64,000 nucleotides of DNA from Gemmatimonadota bacterium (GTDB lineage: Bacteria > Gemmatimonadota > Gemmatimonadetes > Gemmatimonadales > GWC2-71-9): positions 41,834 to 105,833 of the forward strand of contig JBDHAB010000019.1 of assembly GCA_039588295.1 (NCBI GenBank), written 5' to 3'. The stretch's first letter is position 1; each line of letters begins with the position of its first letter. Both the position numbers and the translations under genes were made by a program. Positions 40,472 through 55,125 of this stretch are shown here, piece after piece. Below the pieces are notes generated by a model that saw only the letters and a list, made by a program, of their open reading frames with translations, did not search any database and was not told the DNA's origin.

Positions 40472-41474
40472 TCGCCTCTCGGAGCCTACCCGCACCTTCT
40501 CCATCTGCGTCTGCACCACTGAGCGGCTCGACCGCTTTCTCGCCGATCAGCTCGCATTCTCCCGGACCCACGCGGCACGGCTCGTCGCCGCGGGGACGGT
40601 GCGCGTGAACCACGAACCGGCGCGTGCGGCCCGTCAGCTGCAGCACGGGGACATCGTCGCCGTCACCATTCCCGAGAGCCCGCCACCGCAGGAACTTGCG
40701 CCGCGACCACGGTCGCTCGACATCGTATACGAGAACGGGGCACTCCTGGTGCTGGACAAGCCTGCGGGCCTTGTCGTGCATCCGGCTCCCGGACACTGGG
40801 ACGATACCCTGTTGAACGCGCTCGTCGCGCGGGGCACACCGCTGTCAGTGGGTGGCAGTGGTCGGCCCGGCATCGTCCACCGCCTCGACAAGGACACGTC
40901 GGGACTGCTGATCGTCGCGAAGACCGATGCCGCACATCGGTCGCTTGCTCGCGCTCTCGCACGGCGAAAGGTGGAACGGACGTACGCCGCCCTCATTTGG
41001 GGCCACATCAAGGGATCGGTCGAGATCGATGCGCCGATCGCGCGGCACCCCAAAGACCGCAAGCGGATGGCGGTGCTCGCCACCGGCCGGTCCGCCGTTA
41101 CGCAGGTCGATCGGATTGGGCGTTTCGGCGCCTGCGATCTGGTCCGCGTGCGGCTGCTGACCGGCAGAACCCACCAGATCCGGGTGCATTTGGCGCACGT
41201 CGGACATCCGGTCGTTGGCGACCCGACCTACGGTGGCGGCGGAGCGCGGCGGTTATCAGGGCCACAGCGACGCGAGGCAGCCGCCATCGAGCGCGCCGCG
41301 CCCCGACAGGCACTTCACGCGGCCCGGCTCCGGTTCGACCACCCCGCGACCGGCGAGGCATTGGACCTTCGGAGCGAATGGCCGCGCGATCTCCGGGCAG
41401 CGCTGTCTGCAGCTGCCGGTGATCACACGCTTGATCGGGAGAATTCACTCCAATATCTTGAATTCTTCGAGTGA
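40449..41474 (+). CDS. rluD: RluA-family pseudouridine synthase (RluD-like)
   Basis: S4 domain RLDRFL; DKPAGLVVHP, IVHRLDKDTSG, TGRTHQIRVH, GDPTYG, QALHA. Confidence 0.92.
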   Translation: MPVPPRPDRLSEPTRTFSICVCTTERLDRFLADQLAFSRTHAARLVAAGTVRVNHEPARAARQLQHGDIVAVTIPESPPPQELAPRPRSLDIVYENGALLVLDKPAGLVVHPAPGHWDDTLLNALVARGTPLSVGGSGRPGIVHRLDKDTSGLLIVAKTDAAHRSLARALARRKVERTYAALIWGHIKGSVEIDAPIARHPKDRKRMAVLATGRSAVTQVDRIGRFGACDLVRVRLLTGRTHQIRVHLAHVGHPVVGDPTYGGGGARRLSGPQRREAAAIERAAPRQALHAARLRFDHPATGEALDLRSEWPRDLRAALSAAAGDHTLDRENSLQYLEFFE

Positions 41475-41648
41475 GCGCCGAGCGGGTCGGCACGACCGAT
41501 ACCGACTGGCACCGTGATGCGCGGGAATGGAACCGCTCCTTGTCCCCTTCCAGCCAGCCTTATCGACGAATATCCGTGAGCAGCGTGTGGTGAGAGCCAA
41601 CAGGCGGTGGTGCGGATGCGTCAGTCTGAGCGACTGGAGCGAGACCGC

Positions 41649-44324
41649 GTGACGGGTGCTCCACCGCTTGAGCGTGACCGGGCCATTCTTCGGGCCCTCG
41701 CCGGGCGGATCGATCCTAGTGATGCCGGTGCGCAGAACAACCTCGGCGTGCTCTACTACCGTCGCGGACTCATCGAAGAGGCGGTCCGGCAATTCCGCGA
41801 GGCATTGGAGCTCGATCCGCGGCTGCACACCGCTCGGCGGAACCTCGAGATCGCGTACACGGAGACGGGCTACTACGATCACCGGATCGCGGAACTCAGC
41901 GAGCAGCTCCGCGCGAATCCGCAAAACGATGAAGCCCAGTGGGAGCTTGGGCGAATCTACGCGTCCATGCGGCACTTCGATTCGGCGATCGATGCGTTTC
42001 AGACCATCGTCCTCCGCGCGCCGGAACGGACGGAGGTCCTCGTGGAGTTGGGTCTGGCCGAGCGCGGTCGCGGGCGCCTGGAGCCGGCGCTGGAATGGCT
42101 GGAGCGCGCGCGGACCATCGATCCACACGATGCCACCGTGCTACAGCACCTGGGTACGGTGCTGCATGAGCACGGTGCCGACACCGAAGCGTTCTCGGCG
42201 CTGACCCGCGCCACCCAGCTCGCCCCGGACAACGCGGAAGCGCATTATCAGCTCGCGTTCGTGCTTGGCACCCTTGGCCGGCACGACGAGGCAAGAAGCG
42301 CCACGAAACTCGCCATGCAGTTGAGTCCGTCCTTGGGCCGCCCGCACGCCACGCTATCGCTCACCTCCACGCCACATGACGGCGTTCCTCCACCAGCCGC
42401 CGCGCCGGGCCAGCAACCGACGGCGGCGCTCGCGCACTACAACCTCGGACTCGTGTTCCGCCGGCAGGGCCGGTACACCGAGGCGCTACGCGAGTTTCGC
42501 CTCGCATTGGAGGCAGGGGACGATCGCCGTCTCGTGCTGCCGGCCGTGGCCGAGCTCCATTTGCTCCGGCGGGACCACGATGCCGCGATCGAGGCGTACG
42601 ATCATTTGGTGGAAGACATGGCTGACACGCCCAAGGTCTGGAACGAGCGAGGCGTCGTGCTGCACCTGCTGGGGCGATTCGATGAGGCGCTTGCCTCGTT
42701 CGAGCGTGCGATTTCGTTGGATGCCGATTATGCGCTCGCGCTCAACAACCTTGCGATCACCGCGGCGTACGGTGGCGAGCCGGCGAAGGCGATGACGGCT
42801 CTGCGCGATGCGATTCGGCGAGCGCCGGCGGTGACGCTCCCGCACACGAACCTGGGGATGCTCCTCTTCAAAGTCGGACAGCTCCAGGTGGCCATGGACG
42901 CGTTTCAGCGGGCGGCGGACTTGGATCCGACGGATGCGGCGGCGTGGAACGGCATCGGATTGGTGTTGACGGAGCTTGGGCGCGATCGGGATGCACGGCG
43001 CGCCTTCGCACGGGCCGTGGACGCCGATCCCGACTCCGCCGAACCGCACTACAACTTGAGCTTTGCACTCTCCCGTCTCGGGGAGTTCGACGAGGCATTG
43101 CGTGAGGTGACCCGCGCACAAACCCTGGATCCGTATTACATGCCCGGCAAGTTCCGTCTCGGGATCGACGCGGTCTACGAGCATCGGTCTACCGCGGTGG
43201 CGCCAGAAATCTCGGCGGATGTCGCGTCCGGATTGGGTGGACGCGGGTTTGCGTTTGAGGCGGAGTTGTTCGACGACGTGTTTGCCCAGCTGGATCAGGA
43301 GCCCGACGAGCCAGCAGCCGCCGGTGACGAGTCGGACCGGTACGCGGCGGCGCGCGCGCACCTGGATCGCGGCGAGGTCGATCGTGCGATCGAGGAGGCC
43401 CAGCGGGTGCTGCAGGCCGGCGGTGAGCCAGTGGCCGGTAACGCGCTGCTCGGCATGCTGTTCGAGCGCCGGGAGTTGTACACGGAGGCGCTGGAACGGT
43501 ACCGCGCCGCCCGCGCCAAGGCGCCACAACGCGTCGACCTCCGACTCGGCGAGATTCGGCAGCTCCTGGCACTCGGACGCAGCACGGTCGCGCTCGGGGA
43601 GGCCGTTGCGTTGTCCGCTGCTCACCCGGATGAAGTCGAGGCGGCGGTGCTCGTCGCCCGCGCCCGGCTCGCGAGCGGCGACCCGGCGCGCGCGCGGGAG
43701 GTTCTGGCGGAGGCGATCCATCGCACTCCGCGGCGCACCGATCTGCTCGCGCTGGAGGCGGAGATCGCCCTGGCCCTGGGGGATCTTCATGTCGCCCGCG
43801 ACGCCTGCCAATCGGCGGTGGAGCTCGAACCGGGATTCGTGCACGCGTGGCTGATGCTCGGCACGGTCGCCGAAGAGGCCGAGGAATGGGATGACGCCGA
43901 GTCGGCCTATCGGTCGGCGCTGGAGGGAGACCCCGCGTTTGTGGCCGCAACCCTTGCGTTGGCCGACGTTCACCGTAAGCGTGGGGCCTCGGAGCGAGCT
44001 GTGAACCTCCTGGCCGACGTGCTGGCCGAGCATCCTTCGAACCTGGACGCGTTGGTCGGTCTCGGCCGCGCGTTGCTCGACGGCGGTCGCACGGAGCAGG
44101 CCCTGGAGGCCTTCGATCGGCTGCTGCAATACGATAGTGAGCACGTCGGGGCGCTGTTTCTGTCTGCGGTGGCGGACGCGCGCCTCCGGAGATTTCGGGA
44201 AGCCGTGGCGTGTTGGGAACGCGTGGTGGCGCTCGAACCGACGAGTCCATTGGCCGCACGAGCGAAGGATCTCGCGCGAACGGCCCTCGACCTCGACCGC
44301 TTGTTTCCGGTTGGAGAGCTGTAG
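41649..44324 (+). CDS. Large cytoplasmic multi-TPR protein
   Basis: Many TPR repeats (AQNNLGVLY, AHYNLG, VWNERG, AWNGIG) with an acidic linker; no signal peptide; start uncertain (41607/41616/41649). Confidence 0.88.
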   Translation: MTGAPPLERDRAILRALAGRIDPSDAGAQNNLGVLYYRRGLIEEAVRQFREALELDPRLHTARRNLEIAYTETGYYDHRIAELSEQLRANPQNDEAQWELGRIYASMRHFDSAIDAFQTIVLRAPERTEVLVELGLAERGRGRLEPALEWLERARTIDPHDATVLQHLGTVLHEHGADTEAFSALTRATQLAPDNAEAHYQLAFVLGTLGRHDEARSATKLAMQLSPSLGRPHATLSLTSTPHDGVPPPAAAPGQQPTAALAHYNLGLVFRRQGRYTEALREFRLALEAGDDRRLVLPAVAELHLLRRDHDAAIEAYDHLVEDMADTPKVWNERGVVLHLLGRFDEALASFERAISLDADYALALNNLAITAAYGGEPAKAMTALRDAIRRAPAVTLPHTNLGMLLFKVGQLQVAMDAFQRAADLDPTDAAAWNGIGLVLTELGRDRDARRAFARAVDADPDSAEPHYNLSFALSRLGEFDEALREVTRAQTLDPYYMPGKFRLGIDAVYEHRSTAVAPEISADVASGLGGRGFAFEAELFDDVFAQLDQEPDEPAAAGDESDRYAAARAHLDRGEVDRAIEEAQRVLQAGGEPVAGNALLGMLFERRELYTEALERYRAARAKAPQRVDLRLGEIRQLLALGRSTVALGEAVALSAAHPDEVEAAVLVARARLASGDPARAREVLAEAIHRTPRRTDLLALEAEIALALGDLHVARDACQSAVELEPGFVHAWLMLGTVAEEAEEWDDAESAYRSALEGDPAFVAATLALADVHRKRGASERAVNLLADVLAEHPSNLDALVGLGRALLDGGRTEQALEAFDRLLQYDSEHVGALFLSAVADARLRRFREAVACWERVVALEPTSPLAARAKDLARTALDLDRLFPVGEL

Positions 44325-45485
44325 ATGGCAATCGAAGGTCCGCTGAGAGAACTCGGGATTCACGACGTGTTCCAATTGCTCGATCTCAGTCGAAAGACGG
44401 GCGTGTTGACGATTACCTCCCGCGTCCGCCAGAACCGAGGGGTCGTGTACTTCGAGCACGGTGCAGTGGTGCACGCCGGCATTCAGGCGAATCCCCATCC
44501 GCTGGGTGGGGTGCTCCTTCGCGCGGGTAAGATCGCCGAGGCGGATCTCCACCGAGCGCGAGCCATGCAGCAACGTGGCGATACCCGTCGCTTGGGGGAG
44601 ATCTTGGTGGCGATCGGTGCGCTGGCGCGACGGGAAGTGGAGCGTCAGGTGCGGCTCCAGATCGAAGAGGTCGTCTTCGAGGTGATGAGCTGGCGCGAGG
44701 GCTATTTCTCGTTTATCGAGGGTCCCTTGGACGGTATCCCGGCCGAGGCAACGGTGCGCATCCCAACCGGTTCGCTCCTGCTGGAGGCCGCGCGGAGAAT
44801 CGACGAATGGTCACGGATCGAGTCGCACATCCCGCGGTTGACCTTGGTGCCGCACCTCGCCGAACTCGAGGGCGAGGGCGGCTGGCTGGACCTCCTACCC
44901 GCGGAATGGGAGGTGCTTGCCGCCATTGACGGCCAACGCGATCTTCGCGCCATCGGGCGGACGCTGCGCAAATCCGAATTCGACGTGGCGAGAACGGTGT
45001 TCGGACTCGAGAGCGCCGGAGTGGTCGCGCTCAAGGAAGAGGGTATGCCGATCGCTGAGGGGGGAGAGAACCGTGGGGATCTGCAGGAGCTGCTCGACCG
45101 AGTCGAGGACGCTTTGGCCCGCGGGGATGCGCAGGACGCCGTGCGGTTAGCCGAAGCGGCGCGTGGGCGCTTCCGTGATGAACCCGGCGTCGCATTCATC
45201 TCAGGACGGGCCAGTCTGGTGGGTGGCCGGATCGCGGAGGCCGAGGAGGCGTTTCGCCATGCGCTCCGACTCGACCCCTTGATGCTCCCCGCCCACCGAT
45301 TCCTCGGCGATGCCCTGGCGAAGCAAGGCAAGATCGCCGAAGCCGTCGAGTGGTGGGAGCGATGGCTCACGCTGCGTGGACACGGGAATGATGTGGAGGC
45401 GGACGACGACGAGACTGCAGCCGTGCGCAGCGCGCTTCAGGCAGCGCACACTCTCGCTACCTTCCTGCAGGTACCACATGAATGA
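44325..45485 (+). CDS. DUF4388 (PATAN-like) + MshEN-like + TPR protein
   Basis: MAIEGPLRELGIHDVFQLL..KTGVL..YFEHG; RLGEILV; WREGYFSF; LLLEAARRIDEW; C-terminal TPRs. Confidence 0.85.
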   Translation: MAIEGPLRELGIHDVFQLLDLSRKTGVLTITSRVRQNRGVVYFEHGAVVHAGIQANPHPLGGVLLRAGKIAEADLHRARAMQQRGDTRRLGEILVAIGALARREVERQVRLQIEEVVFEVMSWREGYFSFIEGPLDGIPAEATVRIPTGSLLLEAARRIDEWSRIESHIPRLTLVPHLAELEGEGGWLDLLPAEWEVLAAIDGQRDLRAIGRTLRKSEFDVARTVFGLESAGVVALKEEGMPIAEGGENRGDLQELLDRVEDALARGDAQDAVRLAEAARGRFRDEPGVAFISGRASLVGGRIAEAEEAFRHALRLDPLMLPAHRFLGDALAKQGKIAEAVEWWERWLTLRGHGNDVEADDDETAAVRSALQAAHTLATFLQVPHE

Positions 45486-46272
45486 CGAGATCGCGGCCCT
45501 CACGGACGCGCTGACCCGGGATCCGGGCAGCCTGGCATTTCTTGAGCTGGGGGAGATGTTGCGCCGACGGGGCGAGTTCGAGGCAGCCGTCGGGGTGTCG
45601 CTCTCCGGTCTCGAGCATCACCCGGATCTGCTCGAGGCGCACGATCTGTACGCGCGCATCCTGGCGGACGTGGGAGATGTGGACCGTGCCTGGGAGGTGT
45701 GGGAGGGGATCTTGGCGCGTGAGCCGCGGCACGTGGGCGCCCTCAAGGGTCTTGGGTTCCTGTCCTTTGGAGCGGGCGATCTGGATTCGGCCCTCGATCG
45801 CTTGGAGCTCGCGCTGGCCGCCGATCCGACGGACCCGACGGTGGTTCAGGCGCTCATGACGGCGCGTGCGGCAGCCGAAGGCGGCGTGCCCGTCGGCTCG
45901 CCTGAGCTGGCGGATCCGGTGTTTGCGGGGCTCGATGGTGCCGAGCAGGGAATCCTGCTCGTGGACGAACGGGGGCAGGTGTTGGGCGGTGGCGTGGCGG
46001 ATGAGCGTGGCGAGGACGTGTCGGAGAAATCCGCGGCTTTTCTGGCGGGCGCGGCGCGTGAAGCCGAACGTACGGCACGCCTGCTGGACATGGGCTATTG
46101 GCGCTGGGTCGCAGCCGAATCGTCGGGAGGCAACGTGCATCTCAGCGCCCCGGCGGAGGGAAGCCTGCTGATGATCGTGCGCGATCGCAGCGTGCCATCC
46201 GGTCGGCTCGCGATGCTCGCCGCACGTGCGGCGGAGGCCGCGCGAACCTGGCTCTGGGAGCAGCAGTTGTGA
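45478..46272 (+). CDS. TPR + roadblock/LC7 domain protein
   Basis: N-terminal TPRs; C-terminal GILLVDERGQVL..AAFLAG..LLMIV roadblock pattern. Confidence 0.78.
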   Translation: MNDEIAALTDALTRDPGSLAFLELGEMLRRRGEFEAAVGVSLSGLEHHPDLLEAHDLYARILADVGDVDRAWEVWEGILAREPRHVGALKGLGFLSFGAGDLDSALDRLELALAADPTDPTVVQALMTARAAAEGGVPVGSPELADPVFAGLDGAEQGILLVDERGQVLGGGVADERGEDVSEKSAAFLAGAAREAERTARLLDMGYWRWVAAESSGGNVHLSAPAEGSLLMIVRDRSVPSGRLAMLAARAAEAARTWLWEQQL

Positions 46273-46619
46273 ACCCGCGGTTCCAACAGGCACTTGACGG
46301 GATCACCCGGGTCGGAGGGGTTCGGGGGGCGATGCTGGTGACGGCCGACGACGGGCTGGTGATTGCCGACACCGTGATGGAAGGAGTGCGGGGGAACGCG
46401 GTAGCGGCACTGGCCGCGAGCTTGATGAAGCGGTTTCGCCGGGTGTCGGCGGCCGCGTCAGTTGGGGCGCCCCACTTTCTACACTTGCAGGCAGACAATG
46501 GGACCCTGGTCGTTGTGCCCGCGCCGAACGACGTGCTCGTGGTGACGATCGGCAGCCCGGAGCTGAACGTCGGACTGACACGACTGGTAATGATGCGGGC
46601 AGCCGAGGTGATGACGTGA
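46269..46619 (+). CDS. Roadblock/LC7 domain protein (MglB/MglC-like paralog)
   Basis: GVRGAMLVTADDGLVIA..AALAASL..LVVT..NVGL; GTGA overlap with the upstream gene. Confidence 0.85.
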   Translation: MNPRFQQALDGITRVGGVRGAMLVTADDGLVIADTVMEGVRGNAVAALAASLMKRFRRVSAAASVGAPHFLHLQADNGTLVVVPAPNDVLVVTIGSPELNVGLTRLVMMRAAEVMT

Positions 46620-47086
46620 AGACGACGCGGGCTGTCGAGTCGTGGACGCTGCAGCCGTTAGAGCGGTTCATTTACGATACGGGGGCGCGCCTGACGCTGA
46701 TCATGACCCCGGCTGGGCAGGTACTGGCCCAACATGGCTTCACGCGGGCCGTCGACGTGATGGCGGCTGCGGCACTGGGGGCGGCCATCTTCTCGTCCAC
46801 GGGCGAGATTGCAAAGATGCTGCGGGAGGGCGGATTTTCGTCGTTGAATCATCAAGGGCGACGGCATGGGGTCTTCCTCGGTGGATTTGAGACCCGCCGA
46901 GGCCGGCTGCTCGCGCTCGTGGTGTACGGCCCCGACTCGTCGCTCGGTCTGGTCCAGTTGTTCTTCGAGGAGCTGGTGGAGCGTCTAGCGCTCGCGTCGC
47001 CGATGCAGGACGATCGACGTCCCATCCTCGCAGCCGACTTCGAACGCGAGCTGAATGAGAGCCTCTCTAGCCTGTTTGGACGGTGA
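46616..47086 (+). CDS. mglB: MglB-type GTPase-activating roadblock protein
   Basis: Roadblock fold with AGQVLAQHG, AALGAA, HQG, SSLGLV and C-terminal helix LNESLSSLFG; immediately upstream of mglA. Confidence 0.82.
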   Translation: MKTTRAVESWTLQPLERFIYDTGARLTLIMTPAGQVLAQHGFTRAVDVMAAAALGAAIFSSTGEIAKMLREGGFSSLNHQGRRHGVFLGGFETRRGRLLALVVYGPDSSLGLVQLFFEELVERLALASPMQDDRRPILAADFERELNESLSSLFGR

Positions 47087-47089
47087 GCG

Positions 47090-47689
47090 TTGTCACTAGT
47101 CAACTTCACGAACCGTGAGATCACCTGCAAGATCGTCTACTACGGGCCGGGCCGCTCGGGAAAGACGACGAATCTGCAGTACATTTACGGTCGCGTGCCC
47201 GACGGCCGCCGAGGCAGAATGGTATCGCTCGCGACGGAGACCGAGCGTACGCTGTTCTTCGATTTCCTCCCGCTCGAGCTCGGAAGCATCTCGGGGTTCA
47301 CGACGCGGTTTCACCTCTATACAGTGCCGGGACAGGTGTACTACAACTCGACCCGCAAGCTGGTGCTGCAGGGCGCCGACGGCGTCGTGTTCGTGGCTGA
47401 CAGTCAGGCCCGGCAGCTCGATGACAACATCGACAGCTTGCAGAACCTCCAGGCCAACCTGATCGAGTTGGATATCGAGGTGCGCTCGTTGCCGCTCGTG
47501 TTTCAATACAACAAGCAAGACCTGCCCGAGGATCTCATCCTGACGCACACGGAGCTGGATGACGCGGTCAACTTCTGGGGCGTCCCGAGCTTCACGTCAG
47601 ACGCGTTGCGTGGGGTTGGAGTGTTCGAAACCTTGAAGGCCGTATCCGAGATGGTCCTGCGCAGATTGAGCCGGGAGGCTCCCGAGTGA
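47090..47689 (+). CDS. mglA: MglA small Ras-like GTPase
   Basis: KIVYYGPGRSGKTTNL, ERTLFFDFLP, YTVPGQVYY, GADGVVFVADSQ, NKQDL; TTG start. Confidence 0.95.
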   Translation: MSLVNFTNREITCKIVYYGPGRSGKTTNLQYIYGRVPDGRRGRMVSLATETERTLFFDFLPLELGSISGFTTRFHLYTVPGQVYYNSTRKLVLQGADGVVFVADSQARQLDDNIDSLQNLQANLIELDIEVRSLPLVFQYNKQDLPEDLILTHTELDDAVNFWGVPSFTSDALRGVGVFETLKAVSEMVLRRLSREAPE

Positions 47690-49638
47690 ACGAAGAACTC
47701 AACCCGCGGTTCACGTTCGACGCCTTCGTGGTCGGCGCCGCCAATCGGCTCGCGGTGACCGCTACCCGAACCGTCGCCGAGTCGCCGGGGACGGCGTACA
47801 ACCCGCTCTTCATCTACGGTGAGAGCGGCTTGGGCAAGACGCACCTGCTCATGGCCATTGGCCACTTGTCCAAAGAGCTCGCACCGGGCCTGGACGTGGA
47901 GTATGTGACGCTGGACGAGTTTGTGGAGCTCTATCAAGCGGCGGTTGGCGCGGGGCAGAGCGAGGCTCTGCGGGGGCGGCTCGGCCGGATCGACGTGCTT
48001 CTCGTCGATGACGTGCATTTCCTCACGCACCGCCGCGAGATGCAGGCTGAACTGCTGCGGGTCGTGGAGCAGCTGCAGGGCGGAAACCGTCAGGTCGTGC
48101 TGACCAGCGATCGTCCCCCAGCAGAGATCCAGGAACTCGACACCAGGCTGTTGACCCGGTTCGACGGCGGTTTGGTGGTGGACATCGACACCCCCGACTA
48201 CGAGACCCGCCTTGCGATCCTCAAGCGTCGAGCGGCCGACCGCGGAGCACAATTCGCTTCAGGGGTGCTCGACGTGGTGGCCCAGGTCGAGGTCAACAAC
48301 GTCCGCGAGCTGTTGGGTCTCCTGAACCGCCTCGTGGCGTACCAGGCCGTCAGTGAGACCCCACTCACACCGGATGCCGCCCATCAACTGCTTTCGGGTG
48401 AGGTGCCGCAGCGTCCCAGCGTCACCGGCGTGCCCGACGCAGCCGTTCGAGCGGCAGACGAATTCGCAGAGTTCCTCTCTGGTATCAGCCACACCGTCCA
48501 GGAGCAGATCGACGCGTGGCGCACGCGGGTAGGCGACGGCATCAAACGGTGGGGGAGTGAGGGGTACCGTACGGCGCGACTGGAACAGCTCCTGAAGCAA
48601 GATGTGCCCACGGGGGTCGATCGCGTGATCAAGGCCTATGAACAGGATGTCGACCACTTGAAGGCCTTCCAGCGTGCGATGGCGCGGGTCGACCCCCACC
48701 GGGTGAGTGATCCAGTATTCTACGACCCCGATCGACTGGAGGAGGCCGACGCGCTCGTGCAGGCGGCGCTGCGCGAAGGTCGCCCGCCGCCGGGTCCTTC
48801 CTCCGCCTGGACCATGGAAACGCTCGTCGTGGGAGAGGCGAACAAGTTCGCGTTGAACGCGGCGAATGGTGTGATCGCGGCGCCGGGCGTGAGTTATAAC
48901 CCGATGGTGGTCGTGGGACCGCCCGGCGTTGGGAAGACCCATCTGCTGCACGCGATGGGCAACGCGCTTGCTGAGGATCCCGAGGCCCGCGTGGCGTGCC
49001 TGTCGGCCCAGCAGTTCGTCGACGAGCTCCTCGATGCGATCGATGGGGACCGTGTGGAATCGTGGCGGAAGCGCTATCGGTCCGCCACTGCGTTGCTGCT
49101 GGACGATGTGCATCTCCTCGCAGGCAAGGAGCGGTCGCAGGAGGAGTTGTTTCACCTCTACAATTCGTTCATCCAGGGCGAGCAGCAGCTCATGTTCACG
49201 TTGATACTGCCCCCCAAGGATGTGGAGGGTTTCGACGCGCGACTGGTGTCTCGGTTGGAAGGTGGCCTGCTGGCACAACTGGCTGCCCCCGATCGGGAGT
49301 TGCGGCGTGAGATTGCCCTGCGGAAGCTCGGAGGGAAATTCGGCGATGTGGAGGTACCGTTGGTGGACTATCTGGCGGATCGTCCGGCGGATTCGATCCG
49401 TGAGGTCCTCAATGTCGTTCAGCGCATCGTGCGAGCAGCGCAGGCGCAGGGGGCTGAGCCAACGGCCGCCTTCGCCAAGGCGTTGCTGGAAGGGGCGAGG
49501 CCCTCGGCGGCCCGAACGGCCGGAGCCGTTCGAACAAGCGGGATCATGATCTCGCCGATCGGGAGCATCCGCAGCCGGGAGAAGGTAGTGTGGGATTGGC
49601 CCGAGCCGGCGGACCGGGTCATTGAGGAGCTGGTGTGA
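47686..49638 (+). CDS. Tandem double DnaA/Hda-type AAA+ ATPase lacking the DNA-binding domain
   Basis: Two DnaA domain-III modules (YNPLFIYGESGLGKTHLL/VDDVHF/TRF and YNPMVVVGPPGVGKTHLL/LDDVHL/SRL); no domain I/II or domain IV. Confidence 0.88.
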   Translation: MNEELNPRFTFDAFVVGAANRLAVTATRTVAESPGTAYNPLFIYGESGLGKTHLLMAIGHLSKELAPGLDVEYVTLDEFVELYQAAVGAGQSEALRGRLGRIDVLLVDDVHFLTHRREMQAELLRVVEQLQGGNRQVVLTSDRPPAEIQELDTRLLTRFDGGLVVDIDTPDYETRLAILKRRAADRGAQFASGVLDVVAQVEVNNVRELLGLLNRLVAYQAVSETPLTPDAAHQLLSGEVPQRPSVTGVPDAAVRAADEFAEFLSGISHTVQEQIDAWRTRVGDGIKRWGSEGYRTARLEQLLKQDVPTGVDRVIKAYEQDVDHLKAFQRAMARVDPHRVSDPVFYDPDRLEEADALVQAALREGRPPPGPSSAWTMETLVVGEANKFALNAANGVIAAPGVSYNPMVVVGPPGVGKTHLLHAMGNALAEDPEARVACLSAQQFVDELLDAIDGDRVESWRKRYRSATALLLDDVHLLAGKERSQEELFHLYNSFIQGEQQLMFTLILPPKDVEGFDARLVSRLEGGLLAQLAAPDRELRREIALRKLGGKFGDVEVPLVDYLADRPADSIREVLNVVQRIVRAAQAQGAEPTAAFAKALLEGARPSAARTAGAVRTSGIMISPIGSIRSREKVVWDWPEPADRVIEELV

Positions 49639-51257
49639 TGGCCATCAAGGGCAGTCTGAAGGAAGCCTCGCTCGCCGACGTGCTCCAGCTGCTCTCGCTG
49701 GGCCAGAAGACCGGATGTCTCACAGTCACGGATCGCACCAACCTGGGCTACATCTACTTTGAGAAGGGGAGGATCATCTATGCGTCGATCGTGAATCGGC
49801 GCGATCGCCTCGGCGATATCCTGCTCAAGGGTGGGCGGATCACCGGCGAACAGCTCGAGTCCGGTATCGAACGGCAGTCCCAGCAGCGAGACCTGCGACT
49901 GGGGGAGATCCTCGTGACGCAGGGCTCGATCTCGCGTGACGATCTTGAGCACTACATGCGCGTGCAGATCGAGGAAGCCGTGTATTTCCTCTTCACGTGG
50001 ACGCGAGGGAACTTCACCTTCGAGGCCGACCTGCAGCCGGAAGAGCAGGACTTTGTGGTGAACATCAACCCCGAGACCCTGCTGCTGGAAGGGGCGCGTC
50101 GCGTCGATGAATGGGGCCTGATTCGGAAGAAGATCCCGTCCATGGACTACATCTTCACCGTGGAGCAAGGCCGAATCGACGGCTCCGACGTCCAGCTCAC
50201 TCGGGAACAGGAACGGATCGTTCCGCTTCTGGACGGATCCAGAGACGTGACGACGCTGGTTGATGACTCCGGTCTCGTCGAATTCGAGGTCGGCAAGGCG
50301 TTGTATGGCTTGATCACCGCAGGATTTGCGCACCGTACGGGTCGCAGCGAGACTCCGCGCCCCGTCGTGGCCGGAGACGCTCGAGCCAACGAACACAACA
50401 ATCTGGGCATCGCCTTCTACAAGACGGACATGCTGGATGAGGCGACTCGGGAGTTTCAGAAGGTCGTGGAACTGCGGCCAGCTGACGGGGATGCCTACTT
50501 CTACCTGGGCCTGATCGCCCTGAAGCAATCGCACTGGGAGGCAGCGGCCGCCTACTTCAATCAGGCGGTCGACAACGCCGGTCCGCGGGCGGCCGTGCTG
50601 GCCAATATGGCGTTCAGCTATGAAAAGGCAGGTCGCTTCGAGGAGGCAGACGACATCTATGCAGAGGCAGCGGCCCTCGCACCCAACGACCCGCGCATCC
50701 TCACGGGCTGGGGTATCGGCGCGCTCCACCGGGGTGATTTCGCGGTGGCGGCCGGCCGGTTGGACCGAGCACGCGAAGTCTCAGAGGATCGGGCGCTCGC
50801 TCCCCTGTGGTACTGGGCGCGGTCCCTGACCGCGGCGACGCTCGACCAGCTGGATGAAGCGGTGCGCCTGCTGCGCCAGGGGCTCGAGGCGTTTCCCGAC
50901 AATGTCGTGCTCCTGAACAATTTGGCCGTCGCGCTGGAATTGACGGGGGACGTGGATGAGGCGGGCGAGGCATTGCGGGCGTCATTGGCGGAAGAGCAGT
51001 CGGTCCCGCAGGTGTCTAAGAACCTCGGAGACCTGCTCTACCGCGCCGCACGGTATGACGATGCGTGGGAGGCCTATCAACGAGCGGTGCGGCTGCAACC
51101 GACGTTAGGTGACGACATCTACTTCAAGCTCGGCAACATCGCGTATAAGCGCCAGGATCGGGAACTCGCCACCGAGTACTGGAATCGCGCGTTGGAGCTG
51201 AACCCCGATCACGAACTGGCGCGGACCAATCTCGAGACGGTGAGCGCCCTGTCATGA
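49638..51257 (+). CDS. DUF4388 (PATAN-like) + tandem MshEN + TPR protein
   Basis: MAIKGSLKEASLADVLQLL; RLGDILL..RLGEILV; LLLEGARRVDEW; multiple C-terminal TPRs. Confidence 0.87.
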   Translation: MAIKGSLKEASLADVLQLLSLGQKTGCLTVTDRTNLGYIYFEKGRIIYASIVNRRDRLGDILLKGGRITGEQLESGIERQSQQRDLRLGEILVTQGSISRDDLEHYMRVQIEEAVYFLFTWTRGNFTFEADLQPEEQDFVVNINPETLLLEGARRVDEWGLIRKKIPSMDYIFTVEQGRIDGSDVQLTREQERIVPLLDGSRDVTTLVDDSGLVEFEVGKALYGLITAGFAHRTGRSETPRPVVAGDARANEHNNLGIAFYKTDMLDEATREFQKVVELRPADGDAYFYLGLIALKQSHWEAAAAYFNQAVDNAGPRAAVLANMAFSYEKAGRFEEADDIYAEAAALAPNDPRILTGWGIGALHRGDFAVAAGRLDRAREVSEDRALAPLWYWARSLTAATLDQLDEAVRLLRQGLEAFPDNVVLLNNLAVALELTGDVDEAGEALRASLAEEQSVPQVSKNLGDLLYRAARYDDAWEAYQRAVRLQPTLGDDIYFKLGNIAYKRQDRELATEYWNRALELNPDHELARTNLETVSALS

Positions 51258-51291
51258 CGCGGACGCGGCATGCGGGCCGCGGAGTGTGCTG

Positions 51292-52164
51292 GTGACGGAA
51301 TCCTTTACGGAATCCTTTCTCGACCTGGTTCGAGAGCGTTATGCCCGCGTGTTGGAGCGCCTCGAAACTGTGCGCACGCCCCAAGAGCGCGATCAGGTGA
51401 AGCGCGACATCATCGCGCTGTTCAAGACCGTCGATCAGTCCATCACCGATTTGTCGAAGCTGAAGGAAGACATCCGCGTTCTGGTGGATCGCTACAAGGA
51501 GCTGTCGCAGGACGAGCAAGAGGGCCAGGCGCCGCAATTCAGCGGGAGCGCTCCGGTGCTCCACGCCGATCACATTGGGGCCTCGACCTTCATCGAGAAG
51601 GGGTGGAGCCTCATCTCACTGGGTGATTACCCCGGCGCGATCCACGCGTTGGGAAAGGCACTTTCGTTGGCACCAGGGGACTTACAGGCTGAATCGATGC
51701 TGGGCTGGGCGCAGATGCTCAATGAGGAGTATGACTCGGCGCTGGGCACTTTCCAGGAAGTGCTCACCAAACAGCCGACGAACTCCCTCGCGCAGATCAA
51801 CGTCGGATACATCTGTCTCAAGAAACGCCTGTTTGCAGAGGCCATCGAGCACCTGTCGAAGGCAATCCGGTTGGACAATGACAAGAAGGCCACGCTCTAC
51901 GCGCACTACTATCTCGGACTCGTCTATTTCGCGCGTGAGATGTTTGCGGAAGCGCAGAGCTTCTTCGAGAAGACGCTGAAGATTGGACCGAACCTGATCG
52001 AAGCGTACTATGAACTGGGTCGTACTCAGTGGTTCGCGGGCGATCGAGAGGCGGCGAAGCATACCTGGGAACGGGGCTATCAGGCCAACAAGTTCAACCC
52101 GTGGGGCAAACGCTGCATGCAGACGCTCGATCTGGTCGCTCGAGGCCAGGAGCCCCCACGCTAG
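51292..52164 (+). CDS. Coiled-coil + TPR protein
   Basis: N-terminal coiled coil then about 5 TPRs; GGAG RBS before the GTG. Confidence 0.85.
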   Translation: MTESFTESFLDLVRERYARVLERLETVRTPQERDQVKRDIIALFKTVDQSITDLSKLKEDIRVLVDRYKELSQDEQEGQAPQFSGSAPVLHADHIGASTFIEKGWSLISLGDYPGAIHALGKALSLAPGDLQAESMLGWAQMLNEEYDSALGTFQEVLTKQPTNSLAQINVGYICLKKRLFAEAIEHLSKAIRLDNDKKATLYAHYYLGLVYFAREMFAEAQSFFEKTLKIGPNLIEAYYELGRTQWFAGDREAAKHTWERGYQANKFNPWGKRCMQTLDLVARGQEPPR

Positions 52165-53024
52165 TTCCACTCCTGCTCTTGTTGGCTCAGACCGGCGAGC
52201 CCAGCGTGGTGCAGGTGGGGCGTGTCAACGTCATCTATTGGGCGGGATCGGGGGCCACCGCCGTCGCCCTCGGCGAGTTCGCCGATCGTGCGGGACCCTG
52301 GCCCGGCATTCCCGATCCGCCGCGGCGTCCCATACGGCTGATTCTCGCGCCCGATGCCCGGCGCTTCGATTCGCTGACGGCTGGGCGCATTCCGGAGTGG
52401 GGCCAGGCCGCGTCATTTCCGGCCTCCAATACGATCGTGCTCACGCTCTCGCGGGATCATCGTCGAGTGCTCCGCCACGAGCTGGCGCATCTGGCGCTCC
52501 ACAGCGTGGTGCAACGCGTGCCGCGGTGGTTCGACGAAGGCTATGCGGCCCGTGCTGCGGGGGAATGGGATCGGTTGGAGGCCCTCCGCGTGAACTGGGC
52601 GCTGCTGCGCGGAGCCGCCCCGTCCCTGGCGGCCCTGGATCGGTATATCCGCTCGGGCACGGCGGCGGAGGCTGAGGCGTCCTACGCGCTGGCGACCACT
52701 GCGGTGCTGCTGCTGGAGCGGATGGGTGGAGAGCGGCGGCTCGAACCACTGCTGGCGAGGCTGCGCGGCACGTCCGACTTCGATCTCGCACTGCGGGCCA
52801 CGCACCAGATCACGCTGGGGCAGTTCGAAGAGTCGTGGCGCAAGGATCTGCGCACGCGCTATGGCTGGTTGCTGCTGGTCACGTCTCTGACCGTGTTTTG
52901 GGCGTTCGTCGCGCTCATCCTCACGGCACTCTGGGCCCGCCGACGCCAACGCGACCCCGAGCGCCGCCGGGCGCTCGACGAGGGGTGGGTTGTCCCGGAA
53001 GATCAATGGAACCCGGATGCTTGA
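52101..53024 (+). CDS. Peptidase MA / gluzincin-like protein with C-terminal TM anchor
   Basis: HELAH and WFDEG motifs; hydrophobic N-terminal segment and C-terminal TM; start uncertain. Confidence 0.72.
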   Translation: MGQTLHADARSGRSRPGAPTLVPLLLLLAQTGEPSVVQVGRVNVIYWAGSGATAVALGEFADRAGPWPGIPDPPRRPIRLILAPDARRFDSLTAGRIPEWGQAASFPASNTIVLTLSRDHRRVLRHELAHLALHSVVQRVPRWFDEGYAARAAGEWDRLEALRVNWALLRGAAPSLAALDRYIRSGTAAEAEASYALATTAVLLLERMGGERRLEPLLARLRGTSDFDLALRATHQITLGQFEESWRKDLRTRYGWLLLVTSLTVFWAFVALILTALWARRRQRDPERRRALDEGWVVPEDQWNPDA

Positions 53025-53049
53025 CGCTCCCGGAACCTAGGATTAGCCT
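53021..53049 (+). promoter_or_regulatory. Sigma70-type promoter for the small ORF and tRNA-Val
   Basis: TTGACG-17 nt-TAGCCT. Confidence 0.55.
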
Positions 53050-53057
53050 GAGTGTCT

Positions 53058-53243
53058 ATGAAGAATAGGACCGAGTCACCAGCGCGTCTTCGGTTTCGGC
53101 GCCGCAACATGGTGCTGCTGGGAGCGGCCATCGGGGCGCTCGCAGTAGGGTATGTGCTGCTTGCGCGGGGTTCGACGGTGGCAGCCCCTGTGCTCTTGGT
53201 CCTGGGCTACTGTGTGTTGTTCCCATTGGGACTGGCGCTGTGA
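53058..53243 (+). CDS. Small 2-TM membrane protein (DUF3098-like)
   Basis: F.RRN.VLLG...GYVLL..GS...APVLLVLGY pattern. Confidence 0.7.
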   Translation: MKNRTESPARLRFRRRNMVLLGAAIGALAVGYVLLARGSTVAAPVLLVLGYCVLFPLGLAL

Positions 53244-53256
53244 GCGGCGGTCTCGC

Positions 53257-53330
53257 GGGCGAATAGCTCAGGGGTTCAGAGCGCCTGCCTTACAAGCAGG
53301 AAGTCGGGGGTTCAAATCCCTCTTCGCCCA
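53257..53330 (+). tRNA. tRNA-Val(TAC)
   Basis: Acceptor GGGCGAA/TTCGCCC; anticodon arm CCTGC-cttacaa-GCAGG; T loop GGTTCAAATCC; CCA not encoded. Confidence 0.96.
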
Positions 53331-53376
53331 TGTTGAGGGCAATCATGAACCGGTACAGATCCGGAGGGCAGTAGTC

Positions 53377-55125
53377 TTGCGGACACGCTTACAGATTCGA
53401 CTTGTTGTAGCATTGCTTGGTGCTGTGCTGGCGGTGTCCTTCACGACCACCGGCGCGCAGGCCCAGCTTGCCGTTCGGCAGTCCAACTTGAAGATCCTCT
53501 TCCTGATTCCGCACGCGGCTGAAACTGCCGATTCCGCGTTTGCCGTCCAACTGGCCAACGAAGTGCGAACGCGGCTGCGCAACAAGATGCGGCATAAGCT
53601 CCTGATCATTCAGAGCGACGTGATCTGCCAGGTGCTCGAGGAATCGGCCTACAGCTGTGACGCCGTGCTCGGTCCGGCGGACGCCGACCGGTTGGCGCGC
53701 GCGCTGGTGTCGGACGCCTACATCACCGGCAGTCTGTGGCGTGACGGCGACGCTCCGGTTGCGCGGTTCCACATCATCAACGTCAGCCGGTCCGGGCTGT
53801 CTGGCTGGACCACCGTCACCGGTTTGACTGAAGATCAGCCGCGGGACTTCGCGGAAACCATCGTCGACAGCCTGGACAATCAGGTGCGAGCGGCGGAGCA
53901 CGCCCGTGAGTGCTCCGATCGCATTGGCCGCGGTGACTTCTCGGGGGCGAGAAACCGGGCGGAGCGCGCGTTCCGCCTGTATCCGAACCACCCGTCGGCC
54001 GCGATGTGTGCCGAAGTGGTCGCGGAAGCGATGCGTCAGCCGCCCGACAGCCAGATTGCCATGCTCGAGCGGGCCGTGGCCGGCGATTCGCTGCTGGTGC
54101 GCGGGTGGGAGCGACTGGGGCGGCTGTATCAACAACGTGGCGACACGCTGAGTGCGCTCCAGGCGTTCGCGCGCCAGAGCACCATCGACCAGGGCAACCG
54201 CGAGTTGCGGATGGGAGTCGTGGCCGGCGCCATCACCGCCAGAGAGTATGCCGTGGCGCGCGACCTTGCCAACGAATGGTTAAATCGGAACCCCACCGAC
54301 CTTGGCATGCTGCAGCTCAAAGCGCGGACGTGCGTCGAGGGAGCGCTGTGGGGTTGTGCAGTGGCTGCGCTGTCGTCGCAGTACGAGGTCGACACCACGC
54401 TTGTCGGCGACACGGTGTTCTACCAGCAGATCATCGGTGCCGCACAGGCGATGGGCGATACCGCGGCACAACTCGAGTGGTCCGGTATCGCGGTCGATGA
54501 AGCACCGGACGTCGTCACCCTCTGGCGGGCGCATGCCAGCGCGCTGGCCACCATCGGGAATACGGATTCGGTGGTAGCCGTCTACGAGCGCCTCCTGTCG
54601 CTCGACCCAACGGATTTCCGCAGCGCCTTGGCGGGAGCACGCATCCTGCTCGAGGATCTGCCGATCGACACGGCGACCCCGCTGGATACGGCGCGCCTCC
54701 GCAAGGGCGGAAGTTTCCTCATGCGCGCGACGACCGCCAGTCGAGACACGTCCGTACTCATGAACGCCGCGGTCATGTACTACCAGAAGGGATCGGCGCT
54801 GGTGCGGGCGCGCAAGGAGCTGGCGACCGCCGTGCAGTGGTTGGAGCGGTCCGTCGAGAACGATGTCCTCGGTCGACTGTCGCAACAGAGCAATTTCTTC
54901 CTCGGACTCGGCCTGATGTTCCGGATCTTCGAGTTCGATCCGCAGGTCACGGAGACGAAGTCGTGTGACCTGGTGGAAGTGGAGGCGAGCATGGTGTCAC
55001 GCGGCATTCAGGCCATGCGACTGGGGTCCTCGATCGCGCCGGATCGAGCTGAGCAGTTCCTGCAGCAGTTCCAGGCGTTCGAGTCGAGGATTCCAAATCT
55101 CCGACGCGCATTCCAGTGTCGATAG
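53377..55125 (+). CDS. Secreted TPR-like protein with N-terminal alpha/beta domain
   Basis: GGAGG RBS before TTG; signal peptide ending AQA-Q; helical repeats; several Cys pairs. Confidence 0.75.
   Translation: MRTRLQIRLVVALLGAVLAVSFTTTGAQAQLAVRQSNLKILFLIPHAAETADSAFAVQLANEVRTRLRNKMRHKLLIIQSDVICQVLEESAYSCDAVLGPADADRLARALVSDAYITGSLWRDGDAPVARFHIINVSRSGLSGWTTVTGLTEDQPRDFAETIVDSLDNQVRAAEHARECSDRIGRGDFSGARNRAERAFRLYPNHPSAAMCAEVVAEAMRQPPDSQIAMLERAVAGDSLLVRGWERLGRLYQQRGDTLSALQAFARQSTIDQGNRELRMGVVAGAITAREYAVARDLANEWLNRNPTDLGMLQLKARTCVEGALWGCAVAALSSQYEVDTTLVGDTVFYQQIIGAAQAMGDTAAQLEWSGIAVDEAPDVVTLWRAHASALATIGNTDSVVAVYERLLSLDPTDFRSALAGARILLEDLPIDTATPLDTARLRKGGSFLMRATTASRDTSVLMNAAVMYYQKGSALVRARKELATAVQWLERSVENDVLGRLSQQSNFFLGLGLMFRIFEFDPQVTETKSCDLVEVEASMVSRGIQAMRLGSSIAPDRAEQFLQQFQAFESRIPNLRRAFQCR

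Follow-up and report, generated by a model that had tools for sequence, protein, structure and literature searches.

A tandem DnaA-domain-III ATPase in an MglA and TPR gene cluster of Gemmatimonadota: a DnaA paralogue that is not an initiator, with a predicted TPR-binding tail

The window analysed here is a stretch of 64,000 nucleotides from a Gemmatimonadota bacterium of the lineage GWC2-71-9 (assembly GCA_039588295.1, contig JBDHAB010000019.1, positions 41,834 to 105,833 of the forward strand). At positions 47686–49638 it carries, on the forward strand like every other cluster feature given below, an open reading frame (ORF) for a protein of 650 residues in which two DnaA-type AAA+ modules are joined by a helical repeat and followed by a short tail. 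The GTG start of this tandem ATPase gene shares the bases GTGA with the stop codon of an mglA-type gene, and its TGA stop and the following ATG have one base in common (TGATG). Module 1 (residues 5–237, 47698–48396) has an intact nucleotide site and ATP-site face; its single-stranded DNA (ssDNA) residue I190 and its finger-face residues R206 and H231 (B. subtilis numbering) are replaced. Module 2 (residues 375–603, 48808–49494) retains the arginine-finger face, while its sensor I and ATP-site face are decayed. The Walker A motifs are GESGLGKT in module 1 (47818–47841) and GPPGVGKT in module 2 (48916–48939). Both modules have the box VII arginine (R158 and R523) and the sensor II arginine (R207 and R572), and the sensor I residue D142 of module 1 is an isoleucine, I507, in module 2. 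The helical linker domain (residues 258–364, 48457–48777) starts with a helix bearing the motif E-F-x-x-F-L (48457–48501), which is retained in ATPase-less mini-ORFs of relatives. The C-terminal tail (residues 630–650, 49573–49638) has the pattern E-K-x-x-W-x-W...R-x-I-E-E and is the predicted ligand of the tetratricopeptide repeat (TPR) groove of the next gene product.

A Pfam scan of the protein gives PF00308 twice (E 3.9e-99), and PF08299, the DNA-binding domain IV, is absent among 21 families at E ≤ 0.01. A profile search of the genome places the two PF00308 matches at 47698–48183 and 48805–49272, with PF08299 on other contigs only. Residue 4 aligns with residue 110 of B. subtilis DnaA, so the N-terminal domains I and II are missing, and relatives share this start. 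An AlphaFold2 model (mean predicted local distance difference test score, pLDDT, 85; predicted template modelling score, pTM, 0.47) has two domain-III folds, a disordered stretch at 239–260, helices at 259–364 and a mostly disordered tail. The best Foldseek match is domain III of B. subtilis DnaA (8bv3), with a template modelling (TM) score of 0.94 by target length. An earlier note, made from the letters alone, had described two such modules without a DNA-binding domain, a protein beginning directly at domain III, paired Walker A, box VII and sensor II motifs and overlaps at both ends of the gene. All of this holds, the Walker A positions exactly. Its loss of sensor I from module 2 is true of this protein and not general, since 12 of 37 second modules retain the Asp. 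An assembly artefact, which the note had thought improbable, is excluded because the modules are diverged (30.5% identity) and many independent genomes encode full-length relatives with two modules. Public contigs that match this stretch are too short to span both modules and do not bear on the question.

In this genome the cluster begins with a 905-residue TPR protein (41607–44324), followed by a DUF4388-TPR paralogue (44325–45485), a TPR and roadblock protein (45478–46272), a second roadblock/LC7 protein (46269–46619), an MglB-like roadblock protein (46616–47086) and the mglA-type small GTPase (47090–47689), which is named from its motifs and context, the libraries having given small-GTPase matches only. 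Downstream of the tandem ATPase gene lies its constant partner gene, which encodes a DUF4388 (PATAN-type) protein with TPRs (49638–51257). By NCBIfam this protein has an MshE-related cyclic di-GMP motif at 42 bits against a cut-off of 38; the upstream paralogue, at 31, is below it. A TPR protein (51286–52164) and a Peptidase MA family protein (52029–53024), a conserved cluster member, follow. Most relatives have cheR-cheD-cheB-cheW-cheW between the partner gene and this TPR gene. Relatives have che genes flanking the cluster, and these are absent here, at 41474–41607 and 51257–51286. No replication gene is found in the cluster and no consensus DnaA box in 41000–53500, and promoters and terminators in 41300–53300 are at chance level. 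The genome also encodes a flagellin, six PilB/PilT-family matches over the cut-off and a second mglB-mglA pair (contig C8, 68997–70127), two mglA copies being the rule in most genomes of families f1–f5 and f8. In six genomes of f4, f7 and f8 (G102:C4, G093:C10, G163:C8, G176:C96, G112:C2 and G155:C193) the match to this other copy contains one TGA, which may merely mean a shorter C-terminus.

The protein is a Gemmatimonadota paralogue of DnaA and not an initiator, as the earlier note had proposed. A canonical dnaA of 460 residues, with domain IV, lies on contig C1 of the same genome. In a DnaA initiator each protomer has the two filament faces together with the ssDNA residues; here the faces are divided between the two modules, and the ssDNA residue pair is kept at only 0.15–0.29 in module 1. 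Modules 1 and 2 are 40% and 34% identical to DnaA, and each is 22% identical to E. coli Hda. Relatives are named DnaA in databases because the summed score exceeds the TIGR00362 cut-off (463.6 against 343.9), while the Hda profiles stay below theirs (TIGR03420, 167 against 194.8 bits; HdaA, 63.5 against 297). The N-terminal sliding-clamp motif of Hda is found in none of 35 proteins when the first 25 residues are searched; E. coli Hda, the control, matched. One Hda trait, the arginine finger, is present in 35 of 41 first and 35 of 37 second modules. With clamp motif, identity and profile score all on the other side, the protein does not belong to the Hda family and is probably not the Hda-like regulator that had been suggested as one possibility. 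On another contig of this genome (C154), L002:1450-1752 on the reverse strand encodes a stand-alone DnaA domain IV protein of 100 residues (PF08299, E 7.5e-14); the ORFs around it resemble phage genes by eye (methylase-like, nuclease-like).

The linker profile matches 136 of 201 Gemmatimonadota genomes, mostly inside an Mgl/chemosensory cluster (95/97 in f1, 28/40 in f2, 3/3 in f3, 3/4 in f4, 1/1 in f5, 3/3 in f8, 2/24 in f7, and none in f6 and f9–f12); these phylum tallies include the unpublished genome G153, on which alone no claim rests. Three PF00308 matches are found in most f1–f4 genomes. Among 40 loci fetched for diversity the gene is present in 37. Rows were dropped for a spurious weak match (L049), a different protein (L051 and L053), a contig end (L050) and a frameshifted module 1 (L056 and L058, from two near-complete genomes). 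The genes usually run in the order TPR, DUF4388-TPR, TPR-roadblock, roadblock, mglB, mglA, tandem ATPase and DUF4388-TPR, with cheR, cheD, cheB and cheW downstream in most relatives and cheW, cheY, cheA and cheC upstream in several.

The gene with which the ATPase gene is constantly paired is not mglA but the DUF4388-TPR gene downstream. The latter follows the ATPase gene in 36 of 37 loci, the 37th being a contig end, while mglA precedes it in 35 of 37. At L044, L045 and L181 the ATPase gene comes after rluD, with no mgl genes, and still adjoins the TPR gene. In two distant families, f11 and f12, in which mglA is found in none of three genomes each at E ≤ 1e-25, the five genomes examined encode a form with a single module, an acidic spacer and the tail, followed by a gene for a TPR-only homologue. 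Strict co-occurrence with mglA therefore does not hold; the overlap with mglA stands, and the weight that the earlier note had placed on this tie is reduced. The most persistent part of the protein is its tail, which had been noticed as an acidic and aromatic replacement for domain IV. Eight sample genomes from four genera have the TPR gene and only one PF00308 match, and all eight have, immediately upstream of that TPR gene, a putative mini-ORF of about 50–80 residues that comprises only linker helix 1 and the tail. The second four of them were foretold before retrieval, and three of these have no mgl gene at the locus. In genus g48, also without an mgl gene there, the mini-ORF retains linker helix 1. 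Among full-length proteins, F263 of that helix is kept in 34 of 35, W638 of the tail in 34 of 35 and E632 in 32 of 35. These rows were not chosen for the tail; they are used in place of tail alignment A6, in which the invariance of W is circular because the rows were picked by the W pattern.

The tail is predicted to bind an asparagine-lined TPR groove of the downstream protein. When the partner (539 residues, 43-row alignment) is folded with residues 616–650, the complex scores 0.84 (runs 0.85, 0.83 and 0.84), and the best of three controls scores 0.02. The pass mark is attained by 116 of the 157 solved pairs and by 2 of the 215 mismatched ones, a calibration that is only roughly valid for alignments of our own making such as those used here. 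The runs share at least 72% of contacts, with a partner pLDDT of at least 71. The modelled tail runs along partner residues 285–494, with K633–V635, W638 and R644–I646 facing N323, N427/N428 and N462. Conservation is 0.66 at the 18 polar groove residues and 0.47 at the 71 other polar TPR positions, in related, non-independent rows. In four rows, representing few independent events, K633 is a Gly and the nearby acidic E434, D465 or D493 is changed or cut off. A search for shorter proteins carrying the tail gave nothing.

The two modules are conserved in complementary ways. The arginine-finger face is taken as F128, R202, R206, H231, R264 and L269 (plus R260) and the ATP-site face as E183, N187, F218, G317 and R321, numbered through B. 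thuringiensis DnaA, in which residue 157 is likewise the Walker A lysine; counts are over 41 first and 37 second modules. The sensor I Asp is kept in 36 first and 12 second modules, F218 in 30 and 3, G317 in 34 and 14, and F117 in 40 and 6, whereas R206 is kept in 6 and 31, H231 in 1 and 21, and R202 in 24 and 36. When the modules of the same protein are compared, module 1 is the better conserved at the nucleotide site in 33 of 37 (4 ties) and over the ATP-site face in 32 of 37 (4 ties), while module 2 is ahead in finger-face residues in 25 of 37 (10 ties). The nucleotide residues of module 1 are 0.95–1.00 conserved over the tandem forms. Thirteen second modules have lost the lid and four the Walker A lysine, although in the family of the window module 2 retains Walker A, Walker B and sensor II. 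In the 13 proteins without the lid, the module 1 site is at 1.00 and the module 2 finger face at 0.88. The simplest reading of this pattern is a single composite site in which module 2 would be the donor and module 1 the acceptor. The pattern supports a pre-linked AAA+ dimer, as first proposed, but AlphaFold2 leaves the arrangement of the modules open.

The linker, first seen as a helical connection between the modules, is indeed helical but is a distinct domain rather than a mere spacer. It is a helical repeat of about 97 residues that folds alone as a helical bundle (pLDDT 92). It has no Pfam family, the ESM Atlas gave no usable match, and its structural matches are not significant, the best (EzrA, Z 6.5, root mean square deviation 3.7, 107 aligned) being in the range of common helical bundles. 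Against 1.84 billion representatives its profile gives 491 matches at E ≤ 0.001. The highest-ranking of these are long proteins with 4–26 copies, those with a name being from Thermoplasmata or Ca. Wallbacteria, and HHalign ties the bacterial linker to the archaeal repeat (probability 95%, E 3.5e-8). Four long matches that were scanned have about eight repeats and a DnaA domain III, and a gene on a Thermoplasmata contig, among archaeal-type genes, likewise joins the two. In the class of that genome, DnaA-domain-III-like genes occur in 32 of 37 genomes, with up to nine matches each, and no domain IV or mgl match is found in the 21 archaeal loci of this kind that were examined. The archaeal modules are 60–64% identical to Bacillota DnaA. 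In Pfam the archaeal head domains exceed the DUF2226 cut-off in two of eight and match DUF4388 in one of eight at E 0.12; a fusion argument tying the head to DUF4388 was not borne out, HHalign giving insignificant probabilities of 0.6% (two unrelated rows included) and 0.35%. A search of metagenome contigs with the archaeal alignment gave nothing.

Several other proteins share these domains. The long Thermoplasmata-class form, with a C-terminal DnaA domain III, is found at L091:9959-14182, L124, L126, L128, L133, L136, L139 and L142; at L126 and L133 a second repeat gene without an ATPase adjoins it. Shorter archaeal DnaA-domain-III proteins of about 415–575 residues (L125, L127, L129, L134, L137, L138, L140 and L141) share a similar basic, possibly amphipathic N-terminus, and one of 1223 residues (L130:8858-17075) lies near genes that look like parA and parB by eye. 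Giant proteins of 2300–3100 residues (P0043, P0045 and P0057/P0197, two of them named Ca. Wallbacteria) have 15–26 copies of the repeat. Within Gemmatimonadota, the linker domain also occurs in a protein (L053:8063-10063 and L051:2235-3818, both on the forward strand, and P0162) with a Cys-rich N-terminal region like the Fe-hydrogenase large subunit (PF02906) and a Pro-rich spacer; a tail-like motif ends the L053 copy. In the two-module forms at L076 and L081 the linker is reduced to barely more than its first helix.

Trees place each module apart from the canonical DnaA of the phylum. In a tree of 38 rows, chosen from 156 with Hda left out, both modules and the single-module forms lie on one side of a branch (76/86) and the archaeal modules sit apart from the bacterial paralogue, but in a quick tree of 98 rows the modules and single-module forms are not joined. 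Approximately unbiased tests did not reject a grouping with the long archaeal forms (p 0.078) or one with the canonical DnaA of the phylum (p 0.135). An internal duplication giving modules 1 and 2 is consistent with these data. A search of viral contigs with DnaA gave nothing.

Taken together, these features suggest that the protein is a TPR-tethered adaptor with paired DnaA modules, likely an ATP-gated switch in MglA/chemosensory polarity or motility signalling and not in replication, a reading to which we give a probability of about 0.5. On this reading, the TPR groove of the DUF4388-TPR protein encoded downstream would receive the tail, the arginine-finger face of module 2 would serve the ATP site of module 1, and the ATP state of this composite site, we infer, would gate a switch tethered to a polarity or motility complex of the MglA/chemosensory kind. 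As four genera manage with the two short motifs only, the ATPase pair would be a modulator of the adaptor rather than its essential core.

Some points weigh against this. No cheD is found in the nine genomes of the window's genus and no CheW in this genome, so a chemosensory link is not needed here. Module 1 retains its own arginine finger in 35 of 41, even where the module 2 site is destroyed, and this finger may serve some other ATPase. In three genera (L054, L055, L061 and L076) it is module 1 that is the more decayed. The residue pattern would fit canonical-like faces that bind each other or bind DnaA alike, and the split into two faces follows the sequence in which the legend of a figure in PMC6669920 names the residues, together with general AAA+ geometry. 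The relative placement of the two modules is left open by a model with a pTM of 0.47, and related genomes are non-independent observations. TPR–peptide complexes are a textbook, well-solved class, and for this reason the pass of the complex model may partly reflect likeness to solved structures.

An improbable alternative is a replication regulator that works like Hda without being Hda. Its outward canonical-like faces would meet DnaA, the finger face of module 2 stimulating hydrolysis on, or capping, DnaA-ATP filaments, with TPR protein and MglA positioning it at the pole. Module 2 retains R202 in 36, R206 in 31, R260 in 37, R264 in 35 and H231 in 21 of 37, I or V stands at ssDNA position 190 in 28 of 37, an arginine finger is present in both modules, and Hda acts on ATP-bound DnaA (PMC5397184). 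Against these stand the missing N-terminal clamp motif (35 of 35), the eight genomes that dropped both modules and retained the tail, the families with a normal dnaA and no tandem gene (f6, f9, f10 and most of f7) and a cluster without a replication gene. In four single-module forms, a small number, the ATP-site face of module 1 is also weaker (0.45 against about 0.7), as expected if module 2 is its partner. A bolder version, which we consider similarly unlikely, makes the protein a TPR-tethered, MglA-positioned mimic of DnaA whose canonical-like faces would cap or discharge DnaA-ATP filaments and so couple polarity to replication initiation, as one branch of a wider class of DnaA-domain-III and helical-repeat proteins in Gemmatimonadota and Thermoplasmata.

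It is equally doubtful that the protein is a direct effector or regulator of MglA, in which MglA-GTP would bind the ATPase and control its assembly, with linker helix 1 as one candidate contact. Besides the position of mglA directly upstream in 35 of 37, the start lies −26 to +14 bases from its stop in 32 of 35 (by a script that favoured near-stop starts), and the first linker helix, to which no partner is assigned, survives in the mini-ORFs. The gene persists, however, without mglA at the locus (L044, L045 and L181) or without a detectable mglA (f11 and f12), and the g48 mini-ORF retains the helix at a locus without an mgl gene.

Less probable still is a DnaA-like filament of alternating modules, serving as a polar scaffold or as a binder of single-stranded nucleic acid. 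In the finger face of module 1, H231 is replaced by Arg in 35 of 41 and R264 and L269 are retained, so this face is under constraint, and the Walker motifs and sensor II kept by module 2 in the window's family would suit a polymer. But the 13 second modules without a lid and the four without the Walker A lysine would break every second interface, and, of the residues essential in B. subtilis DnaA (PMC6669920), module 1 is without I190 and in most cases without K222. Least probable are largely vestigial modules in a gene retained mainly for its two short binding motifs; the mini-ORFs in four genera and the single-module and shrunken-linker forms favour this, and the conservation of the module 1 nucleotide residues and the three PF00308 matches in most f1–f4 genomes weigh against it.

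The AAA+ core of DnaA is known as a replication device, in DnaA itself and in Hda. If the switch reading is true, a DnaA paralogue conserved in an MglA/TPR/chemosensory cluster over most of a bacterial class would represent a non-replicative use of this fold. The database label "chromosomal replication initiator DnaA" for these genes is wrong. The chain would also be a natural two-protomer DnaA interface with its donor and acceptor faces separated, in which one step of filament assembly is testable in isolation. The mini-ORFs define a predicted minimal docking peptide, and the common repeat ties the tandem ATPase to an abundant, uncharacterised archaeal family. Literature searches found no description of the gene, although subscription papers (for example, the 2006 PATAN paper) and one supplement file of PMC4316618, outside their scope, could mention it.

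Each of the known systems shares some features with the tandem ATPase and lacks others. In DnaA, domain III (PF00308; TIGR00362; 8BV3/8BTG, T. maritima 2Z4R and A. aeolicus 2HCB/3R8F) has the same fold, Walker A and B motifs, box VII Arg and sensor II. The tandem ATPase, however, lacks domains I, II and IV, has two modules per chain with the interface faces divided between them, adds a helical repeat and a tail, lies away from dnaN and coexists with a canonical dnaA. Hda and HdaA (TIGR03420, NF006571) are likewise DnaA-clade AAA+ proteins that lack domain IV and keep the arginine finger, but the tandem ATPase has no clamp motif, has two modules, keeps its Walker A lysine and is set in a polarity cluster. 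The Thermoplasmata proteins (for example, JAEHCK010000034.1, L091) have a DUF2226-like head, about eight helical repeats, a DnaA domain III and often a double zinc ribbon, and so join the same repeat to domain III without domain IV. Unlike the tandem ATPase, they have one module, retain most filament and ssDNA residues and have no mgl gene nearby, and the tail motif was not detected in them. Type II double-AAA+ proteins, such as p97/Cdc48 and Rix7, also have two AAA+ modules per chain, often of unequal activity. They appear among the lower-ranked Foldseek matches, but belong to another AAA+ clade (14–17% identity, TM about 0.3), whereas both modules here are DnaA-like. Finally, Group 1 MglA systems (M. 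xanthus MglA-MglB-SgmX) combine MglA, MglB and roadblock proteins with PATAN-type and TPR proteins, as here. TPR regions of SgmX bind MglA and FrzS (PMC11580455). The passages and searched supplements of PMC4316618 and PMC11580455 contain no DnaA-type ATPase in these systems, and the word "DnaA" is absent from the main text of PMC4316618 and from its three searched supplement files. PMC4316618 lists GAU_1409 of G. aurantiaca as "PATAN>MglA>-PATAN>", in which, on our reading, the dash is the unnamed slot where the tandem ATPase gene would lie.

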